A stretch of 64,000 bases of DNA from Escherichia phage teqsoen: sequence record MN895436.1, one strand, 5' to 3'. Below are positions 60,719 through 63,035 of the stretch, in pieces (the first letter of the stretch is position 1; the number at the start of each line of letters is the position of its first letter). The position numbers and the translations under genes were made by a program. The notes under the pieces were generated by a model. The model had not been told where the DNA came from, made no database searches, and saw nothing but the letters and a program-made list of their open reading frames with translations.

Positions 60719-60935
60719 ATTGTTTTTCCGTTAAAACAGTAATATCGTAGTAACAGTCAGAAGAAGTTTTAACTGTGGAAATTTTATTATCAAAATACTC
60801 ACGAGTCATTTTATGAGTATAGTATTTTTTACCATAAATGGTAATAGGCTGTTCTGGTCCTGGAACTTCTAACTCGCTTGGGTTAGGAAGTGTAAAAAGA
60901 ACAACGCCAGAAGTATCTTTAAATCGTAAAATCAT
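60672..60935 (-). CDS. Hypothetical protein (nrdA.2-like)
   Basis: 87-aa ORF coupled to td. Confidence 0.5.
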
Positions 60936-61792
60936 ATTGCCATTTTCCCTTTAATTGCTGGATGCGATTCATAATTTTCAAGGATAAAATCTTTCGGTTT
61001 CATGTATTCAGTTAACCAGTAAAGCTGTGTTTCGGTGTCACAATTTCCAAACTCTATAGGCCAATCAATTTTAAGTTCACATAGTTCTTTAGGCTCACGA
61101 CGTAAAATTTCTTTACATTGCTCAGTATGATTCATATAGATGTGAGTATTACCACCAGAAAATATCAAATCTCCTGGGATAAGATTACACATCTTAGCCA
61201 CAATATGCGTCAAGGCAGCGTACGAGGCAATGTTGAATGGCAAGCCCAAGAAAACATCTACACTTCTTTGGTACCATTGTAAATCAAGATAACCATTACG
61301 CACATTAAACTGATAGAACATATGACAGGGCGGTAATGCCATTTGATTGATTTCAGCTGGATTCCATGCTGAAACGATTTGACGTCGATCAGTTGGTAAT
61401 TTTTTAATACGATCAATAGTTTCAACTAATTGATCCACACCACCGAAATCACGCCATTGTTTACCGTATATAGGACCAAGTTCACCACTATGATATCCTA
61501 GGTCTTTAGCCTGGTTTTCATAGTTATCGTCCCAAATAGTTTTACCTTGAATAAGACTACCATGAGTGCGAAGACGTAAATCATTAACATTGGTAGAACC
61601 GGAAATAAACCATAGAAGCTCAGCAATGCATGCATTCCAGGCGAGCTTTTTAGTTGTTACTGCAGGAAAACCTTTAGTTAAATCCCAGCGTAATTTAGTA
61701 CCGAACAAAGCAATTGTTCCTGTGCCTGTTCGGTCATCGGTTTCATAACCATTTTCAAAAATGTCTTTAATTAAATCTTGGTATTGTTTCAT
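60932..61792 (-). CDS. td: Thymidylate synthase, uninterrupted (no group I intron)
   Basis: 286-aa continuous ORF with the active-site region [11 protein letters not shown] intact. Confidence 0.92.
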
Positions 61793-61840
61793 TTAGTACC
61801 TTATATAAATTATAATACATTTTATGAAGCTAATAATCAA

Positions 61841-62200
61841 TCAATACGGTTTAGCAACAAATTTTCTCTCAATTTCAGGTGTGAAATACAATTCTTTACC
61901 ACGTTTGGAAAAGCGACCAATAATATGATAATTATTCTCATCAAACGTAATATTACCAATATCCATAGCTTTCAACCAAATATCGATATTTCTATCCAGC
62001 TTTATGTCAAAATTCCAATACGGAGAACTATTACCGAAAATACTACAAGCGGATTCAGTGAAACAACTGCTATAAATCTTGTCTTTAGGAACTACTAATT
62101 GATAGACACCTTTAATAAACTGAGGACCTTGCCATTTTGGCTGTTTCACGTCTTTTTCTAATAGAATAGGGTAATAATTAAAATTCATATTTTCCGCCAC
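61841..62200 (-). CDS. Hypothetical protein; ORF lying between frd and td
   Basis: 119-aa ORF with a GTG start (an internal ATG would give 115 aa); aromatic-rich; no motif I recognise. Confidence 0.45.
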   Translation of the reverse strand: MAENMNFNYYPILLEKDVKQPKWQGPQFIKGVYQLVVPKDKIYSSCFTESACSIFGNSSPYWNFDIKLDRNIDIWLKAMDIGNITFDENNYHIIGRFSKRGKELYFTPEIERKFVAKPY

Positions 62201-62208
62201 GCGTTATT

Positions 62209-63035
<827 letters not shown>

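Follow-up and report, generated by a model that had tools for sequence, protein, structure and literature searches.

The gene that separates frd from td in Escherichia phage teqsoen, referred to here as ORF-X, is very probably real, ancestral and already catalogued, with phage T4 carrying the empty allele of the locus. The explanation that best accounts for the evidence as a whole, to which we assign a probability of roughly 0.8, is that ORF-X is a genuine gene, that T4 lost it through a repeat-bounded event, and that its product is a small, non-catalytic binding protein. Our analysis covered a 64,000-nt stretch of record MN895436.1 (the window), in which the frd-td interval (61793-62208) spans 416 bp of the minus strand and holds one ORF (Table 1), much as the initial annotation had described it: about 415 bp, with an aromatic-rich reading frame (F, W and Y make up 17.4% of the protein). 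The gene order on this strand is an 81-aa ORF (62790-63035), frd, ORF-X, td, nrdA.2 (DUF5496), nrdA.1 (DUF4326) and nrdA; ORF-X is a genuine phage gene, presumably co-transcribed with frd and td, and no paralogues of it were found elsewhere within the 64 kb.

Table 1. Features of the frd-td locus in the window, with the basis of each assignment.
Feature	Position	Strand	Basis
frd (dihydrofolate reductase, 193 aa)	62209-62790	-	ORF listing; 96-97% nt identity to T4 frd
td (thymidylate synthase, 286 aa, intronless)	60932-61792	-	ORF listing
ORF-X, 115 aa plus stop	61841-62188	-	PHROG 1928 match, homologues, dN/dS, AlphaFold2 model
GTG-started version of ORF-X, 119 aa	61841-62200	-	ORF listing
Shine-Dalgarno-like GGCGG, 5 nt before ATG 62188	62194-62198	-	anti-SD duplex, -4.8 kcal/mol
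AT-rich spacer, 48 nt	61793-61840	-	sequence read
Left copy of 9-bp direct repeat TAAATGAAA (frd ..K-stop + AA)	62207-62215	-	junction sequences
Right copy of 9-bp direct repeat TAAATGAAA (TAA + td ATG AAA)	61787-61795	-	junction sequences

Selection, family membership and start site

Comparisons with appreciable divergence returned dN/dS values of 0.03-0.06 at dS 0.14-0.99 (Nei-Gojobori): ORF-X differs from its T2 counterpart by 15 synonymous and 2 nonsynonymous changes and from the Mosigvirus copies by 28-31 synonymous and 11 nonsynonymous ones (dS 0.66-0.78), and the synonymous changes reach 35. Conservation of this kind across hundreds of genomes is far beyond what chance would produce, and the claim of an extra protein-coding gene relative to T4 is borne out by a strongly conserved ORF in the interval. 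One might still regard it as a reading frame that is open by chance, in a spacer that encodes no product, given that the early T2 record AY310907 left it unannotated and that its Shine-Dalgarno (SD) sequence is modest; however, the purifying selection, the homologous proteins at the same position in other genera (26-47% identity) and the confident fold prediction all speak against this, and the conservation pattern refutes it, leaving it a probability close to nil.

The family itself is already catalogued, being annotated in hundreds of genomes and included in a PHROG. ORF-X matches PHROG 1928 with an E-value of 3.3e-35 over profile positions 2-124 of 126, and all 40 aligned relatives match this PHROG and no other. 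PHROG 1928 is an uncharacterised phage family, one member of which is named RB32ORF229c in RB51; the gene so designated (in T2, T6, RB3, RB18, RB51, AR1 and phiD1) is the same gene as ORF-X, with nothing material differing between them. An HMM scan of 1.84 billion cluster representatives recovered only 41 members, all of them single-domain proteins of 95-139 aa except for fragments of 37 and 49 aa, and no cellular homologues. Several records (OM386666, OK272484, OK272476, MN580668, PQ571308) mislabel the gene as 'putative dihydrofolate reductase' or 'putative glucose-1-phosphate adenylyltransferase'.

Translation of ORF-X almost certainly starts at ATG 62188 and not at GTG 62200, which lies four codons 5' of it. 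Since the anti-SD duplex is stable before the ATG (-4.8 kcal/mol, versus +0.4 before the GTG candidate), and since homologues and GenBank annotations of ORF-X begin with MNFNYY, the product has 115 aa. The 119-aa GTG-started frame of the initial annotation is thus present as an open frame, but its start is not the one in use; nor does the description of its ribosome binding site as weak hold for the ATG, whose SD is within the range of its neighbours (td -4.0 and nrdA.2 -5.3 kcal/mol) and therefore not notably weak. The SD region (TGGCGGAAAATATG) is kept in T2, T6 and AlbertHofmann. In the window, a 20-nt gap together with this separate SD breaks the coupling of ORF-X to frd.

The spacer between ORF-X and td, with 8 G/C in 48 nt (17% GC), includes the td SD (AAGG, 61802-61799). 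The suggestion that it could hold regulatory signals of its own is plausible, if weak, to the extent that a promoter scan found a sigma-70-like TTGATT-17-TATTAT (61840-61812, 9 of 12 positions matching) and that TTAGCTTCA at 61833-61825 may be a MotA-box-like element, upstream of TATAAT (61814-61809) or of TAATTT. The sigma-70-like match is, however, no better than those in shuffled sequences, and counts of promoters and terminators equal those of shuffles. The spacer is kept in T2, T6 and AndreasVesalius; because it is just 13-15 nt long in Mosigvirus copies, any promoter within it would be a Tequatrovirus feature lying outside the conserved cassette. No meaningful Rfam element was found in the spacer or ORF-X, the single match, to a Drosophila lncRNA, having E 0.47.

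Distribution of alleles at the frd-td slot

ORF-X is the majority state among sequenced Tequatroviruses. Megablast with positions 61700-62300 (a 601-bp query) matched 518 phage records, 354 of which cover at least 80% of the query, and tblastn of ORF-X matched 579 records: 362 at 90% amino acid identity or more (among them T2, T6, RB3, RB9, RB18, AR1 and PST) and 217 below 60%. Allele frequencies were estimated with a 121-bp query representing the T4 junction, by sampling 60 rows evenly from the 514 records matched: about 41 of the 60 (~68%) carry a 420-bp insert, about 4 (~7%) are of the T4 type, and about 14 (~23%, including Shinka, Sf21 and ACG-C40) match on the frd side only and have a different, 68-aa ORF. 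Across Tequatrovirus and some Mosigvirus genomes, ORF-X occupies the same frd-td position at 92-100% amino acid identity, the window copy being one to three residues removed from most of them, and it directly follows frd in T2, T6, AndreasVesalius, AlbertHofmann and NHEP29. The initial annotation had read the gene as a lineage-specific insertion; its presence in about two thirds of the sampled Tequatrovirus-type records, in phages such as T2, T6, RB3 and RB18, in some Mosigviruses and in other genera contradicts this.

In no fewer than seven further genera of the Straboviridae, the gene immediately after frd is a diverged homologue (26-47% amino acid identity); the loci are in Jiaodavirus KPV15, Gelderlandvirus S16, Moonvirus Moon, Kagamiyamavirus EcS1, Winklervirus Gravdalen and Gualtarvirus PSTRCR_127, as well as in unclassified Enterobacter and Klebsiella phages. 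At eight diverged loci the homologue is the first gene after frd and starts 4-20 nt inside the end of frd, and at six of them the next ORF is recognised by the family HMM as a paralogue, X2 (E 1e-19 to 1e-27). X2, which occurs in EcS1, S16, Moon, the Winklervirus and the Enterobacter/Klebsiella phages, belongs to the ORF-X family: the two share HGIY, GN and GRFxKxG motifs, and X1 and X2 of EcS1 match each other by BLASTP at E 1e-8. However, X2 is longer (~116-140 aa) and has an insert of 15-25 residues (PTIxEYxxNP) after the conserved Trp, whereas Tequatroviruses have the short X1 type only. Three tandem members occur on one metagenomic contig: Logan contig SRR28387184_149 (L017:3562-4605) encodes proteins of 148, 106 and 95 aa after dihydrofolate reductase, with overlapping starts and stops, and is the largest array seen. 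The family is found only in T4-like phages, where it always comes immediately after the dihydrofolate reductase gene, in zero to three copies, and in most genera its start and the frd stop overlap.

A third allele of the slot is found in phage Shinka, where an unrelated 68-aa ORF (L019:2561-2767; also at L003:2173-2379 and L006:2148-2354) has an ATG that overlaps the frd stop and a stop that overlaps the td ATG. This gene is orthologous, at 68-79% amino acid identity, to the ORF just before td in the Enterobacter and Klebsiella loci; the depositor label 'DUF4858' was not reproduced by Pfam-A. Judged from these arrangements, the slot reads frd-(X1)-(X2)-(Y)-td, of which Tequatrovirus lineages retain X1, Y or nothing. 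Because an unrelated 68-aa gene swaps in at the same ATG, ordinary T-even mosaic recombination is enough to explain the patchiness of ORF-X. Transfer between lineages is also apparent in Mosigvirus NHEP29, in which ORF-X differs from the window copy at dS 0.66, as against 1.11 for td and 2.28 for frd: the low value for ORF-X relative to frd indicates that the cassette, or a block containing it, moved between lineages and was not inherited purely vertically.

On the opposite side of frd, the 81-aa ORF, whose stop overlaps the frd ATG, differs from T4 frd.1; it is 96-98% identical in T2, T6 and Mosigvirus AlbertHofmann, no DNA match to it was found in T4 or AndreasVesalius, and no Pfam match was found either. 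It looks like a further swappable cassette.

The direct repeat and the T4 junction

Between T4 and the window, nucleotide identity is 96-97% over frd and ~84% over td exon 1, and the comparison revealed no match to ORF-X in T4. There, as the initial annotation had stated, frd and td are directly adjacent, overlapping as ATGA with no ORF between them, and td is split by the I-TevI intron; the ORF is therefore not one that T4 itself carries at this position, and it is well conserved across related phages. The junctions in the window read GTATA-TAAATGAAA-TAACGCGTGGCGGAAAATATG...ORF...GGTAC-TAAATGAAA-CAATACC, and that of T4 reads GTATA-TAAATGAAA-CAATACC, so that the T4 junction (GTATATAAATGAAACAATACC) contains exactly one copy of the repeat: the two 9-bp copies bound a 420-bp indel, and the frd/td overlap of T4 is a single copy. 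The last codons and stop of frd (TAT AAA TGA) make up most of the left copy, and this copy also creates a relic mini-ORF, ATG AAA TAA (62212-62204), at the place where the T4 td ATG sits. The repeat is partly forced by the frd Tyr-Lys-stop and the td Met-Lys; at the five free positions, a chance match has p ~0.003 at this base composition.

The simplest reading is that a deletion between the repeats converted the arrangement seen in the window into that of T4 within the T4 lineage, and that RB69-type Mosigviruses would have lost the gene separately and independently. The reverse course, an insertion accompanied by duplication, would also be compatible with the repeat, which taken alone gives no direction. 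The empty arrangement of T4 and RB69 looks derived; among the Mosigviruses, RB69 lacks ORF-X, and AlbertHofmann and NHEP29 have it. In NHEP29, the ORF-X ATG lies within the overlap with the frd stop (TATAAATGAATTTT), and the repeat common to the td start is TAAATGAA. RB69 has one copy of TAAATGAA, so that the logic of a repeat-bounded indel recurs in a second genus.

Loss of ORF-X from T4 by co-conversion during homing of the td intron was also considered, using a chimeric query composed of ORF-X and the T4 intron, and was rejected as a general rule: 79 records have both, including T6, RB3 and PST. The intron varies in other ways. Shinka has two td pieces ~315 nt apart (L019:3318-3633), and in U115 (MZ753803) and HP3 (NC_041919) the match to the intron portion of that query is confined to its first ~90 nt; some Tequatroviruses thus appear to have a td intron that lacks the I-TevI ORF.

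The td allele of the window is itself unusual. Over the aligned parts its nucleotide identity to td of T4 and T6 is ~84%, and over the full length it is 78% identical to T2 td, whereas T2 and T4 td are 96% alike and the window flanks, frd and nrdA.2, are 95-99% identical. Around the site of I-TevI cleavage and insertion there are synonymous recodings (CGC TCA to AGA AGT, and CTA CCG TTT AAT ATT GCG to TTG CCA TTC AAC ATT GCC), and residues ~240-265 show strong differences at the protein level. From its sequence, this td may be an I-TevI-refractory allele.

Character of the protein and alternative roles

ORF-X encodes a protein of 115 aa with a pI of 8.8 (family median 8.7), which AlphaFold2, supplied with an alignment of 40 sequences, modelled with a pLDDT of 90.3 and a pTM of 0.84. 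As predicted, the protein is a compact, mildly basic and mostly beta domain with one helix: strands at residues 6-12, 27-34 and 62-64 are followed by a helix at 68-77 and by strands at 80-82, 86-96 and 99-104. In the 40-member alignment W19, G91, K95 and G97 are invariant, Q16, G27, Y29, F93 and F102 are nearly so, and there is no conserved acidic residue, His or Cys. That no motif could be placed in the ORF, as first noted, agrees with the database searches: Pfam gave nothing significant for the 40 members (best whole-protein E 0.011, with no family matched by more than one member), and searches of NCBIfam, PADLOC and PDB sequences with ORF-X gave no significant match, the PDB hits (TagH, dynein, SSB) being at chance level with E 0.012 or worse. 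The proteins retrieved by a fold search of BFVD were all uncharacterised ones from T4-like phages, some of them weak matches from Aeromonas phages, and a literature search for the ORF, its PHROG number or a study of T2/T6 versus T4 accessory genes found nothing usable.

Because no Asp, Glu, His or Cys is conserved, ORF-X is most likely not an enzyme, and we give about even odds that it is a non-catalytic binder. The OB fold is a five-stranded closed beta-barrel with the order b1-b3, alpha, b4-b5. The ORF-X model has an OB-like strand order and weak OB and PC4 fold matches, and the closest known systems of that type would be the OB-fold and PC4-like domains that bind single-stranded nucleic acids (SSB, RPA, S1, HIN, Teb1 and the T5 PC4 homologue). 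Given that strand order and those weak matches, single-stranded nucleic acid is the most likely ligand to suggest, although we consider a nucleic acid ligand of any kind a tentative assignment and a rather doubtful one. Binding would occur through the invariant aromatic and basic positions W19, Y29 and R92-F93-x-K95, which we infer to lie on a loop and a hairpin of the OB binding face, and the protein would be made in step with Frd, as part of the early and middle expression of nucleotide-metabolism genes. Growth does not require it, as T4 and RB69 do without the gene.

That dispensability also fits an accessory role in host interaction or counter-defence, in which ORF-X would occupy a plastic slot of the early region and act on a host or defence protein and not on phage nucleotide metabolism. 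Its copy number, which ranges from zero to three by tandem duplication, points the same way, as do its size (a small single domain without cellular homologues) and its fast divergence between genera (26-47% amino acid identity, versus 71-81% for Td and 47-55% for Frd). Yet constraint within the T-even phages is very strong, every genus examined has it in the one position behind frd, whereas accessory genes that are shuffled seldom keep their place, and the literature search found no experimental link; PADLOC returned 0 families at E up to 1, although its library consists of defence and not counter-defence proteins. We regard such a role as improbable, if worth keeping in mind. The tight linkage to frd suggests instead that ORF-X could be a specific partner of dihydrofolate reductase or of the dNTP-synthetase complex (a subunit, tether or regulator), which would account for its co-translation with Frd: from the Tequatrovirus-related genera to Gualtarvirus, frd is invariably followed by this gene, whose start overlaps the frd stop, and it has the same orientation as td and nrdA. 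But ORF-X of NHEP29 is 92% identical in amino acid sequence while its Frd is only 59% identical (87-99% elsewhere), which argues against a co-adapted interface; Frd and Td of T4 and RB69 work without ORF-X, and the window copy is itself uncoupled from frd. A partnership of this kind is accordingly unlikely.

A quite different role is implied by the BASEL genomes, which label ORF-X 'putative homing endonuclease', such features being recognised there in a comparative-genomics setting (PMC8594841). On that view the gene would be a free-standing homing endonuclease or another selfish mobile element whose product cleaves the empty frd/td junction in phages such as T4, so that the cassette is copied into them in mixed infections. 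Besides that annotation, its presence or absence among otherwise 96-99% identical genomes, at exactly the same point each time, would be expected of such an element, as would its occurrence in some Mosigviruses but not in RB69, and the far closer relationship of the NHEP29 ORF-X than of the flanking frd to the Tequatrovirus copy (dS 0.66 versus 2.28). A patchy distribution of this sort is not specific to homing, and the protein does not resemble a homing endonuclease. GIY-YIG homing endonucleases have GIY and YIG ~10-11 residues apart, conserved Arg, Glu and Asn residues and a separate DNA-binding domain, and the HNH type (the Mob proteins) has a beta-beta-alpha metal finger with conserved His, Asn and His/Cys. 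A degenerate GIY-YIG, suggested by 'GVYQL...IYSS', was rejected: conservation is limited to the tripeptide 'GV/IY', a YIG is missing, as are an invariant Glu and Asn, and a search of the 40 members at E up to 1 gave no match to PF01541. ORF-X has one His and two Cys, none of them conserved, and no Pfam HNH match. Indeed, no member of the 40 matched any nuclease family at E up to 1, hhalign gave a probability of 0.8% against T4 I-TevI (12 columns around 'GIYQ') and 0.1% against MobE, no nuclease-like fold was found for the model, Asp, Glu, His, Asn and Cys are all missing from the invariant positions, and 115 aa are too few for a catalytic and a DNA-binding domain. The 'putative homing endonuclease' label is without a supporting motif, fold or conserved catalytic residue. 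ORF-X does resemble the seg and mob genes of T4 in being a small ORF between conserved nucleotide-metabolism genes (as is MobE, between nrdA and nrdB) and in being patchy among close relatives, but it differs from them in lacking GIY-YIG or HNH motifs and catalytic residues, in its strong purifying selection (dN/dS 0.03-0.06, with no decayed copies seen), and in having, in distant genera, tandem paralogues and a start translationally coupled to frd. With the 68-aa gene swapping in the same slot, no nuclease is needed to explain the patchiness, mosaic recombination being sufficient, and homing is very unlikely.

With a small binding protein of an ancestral T4-like family as the preferred reading, ORF-X itself is an already annotated hypothetical protein that overturns nothing and opens no long-standing question. 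It is nevertheless a cheap and well-defined target, offering natural plus and minus alleles, a clean repeat-bounded deletion and a confident fold prediction. The frd/td overlap of T4 is often used to illustrate translational coupling. It is a minority allele, present in ~7% of the 60-row sample, and as such a lesson about the reference genome: because T4 is without ORF-X, a conserved family of the Straboviridae was never studied.
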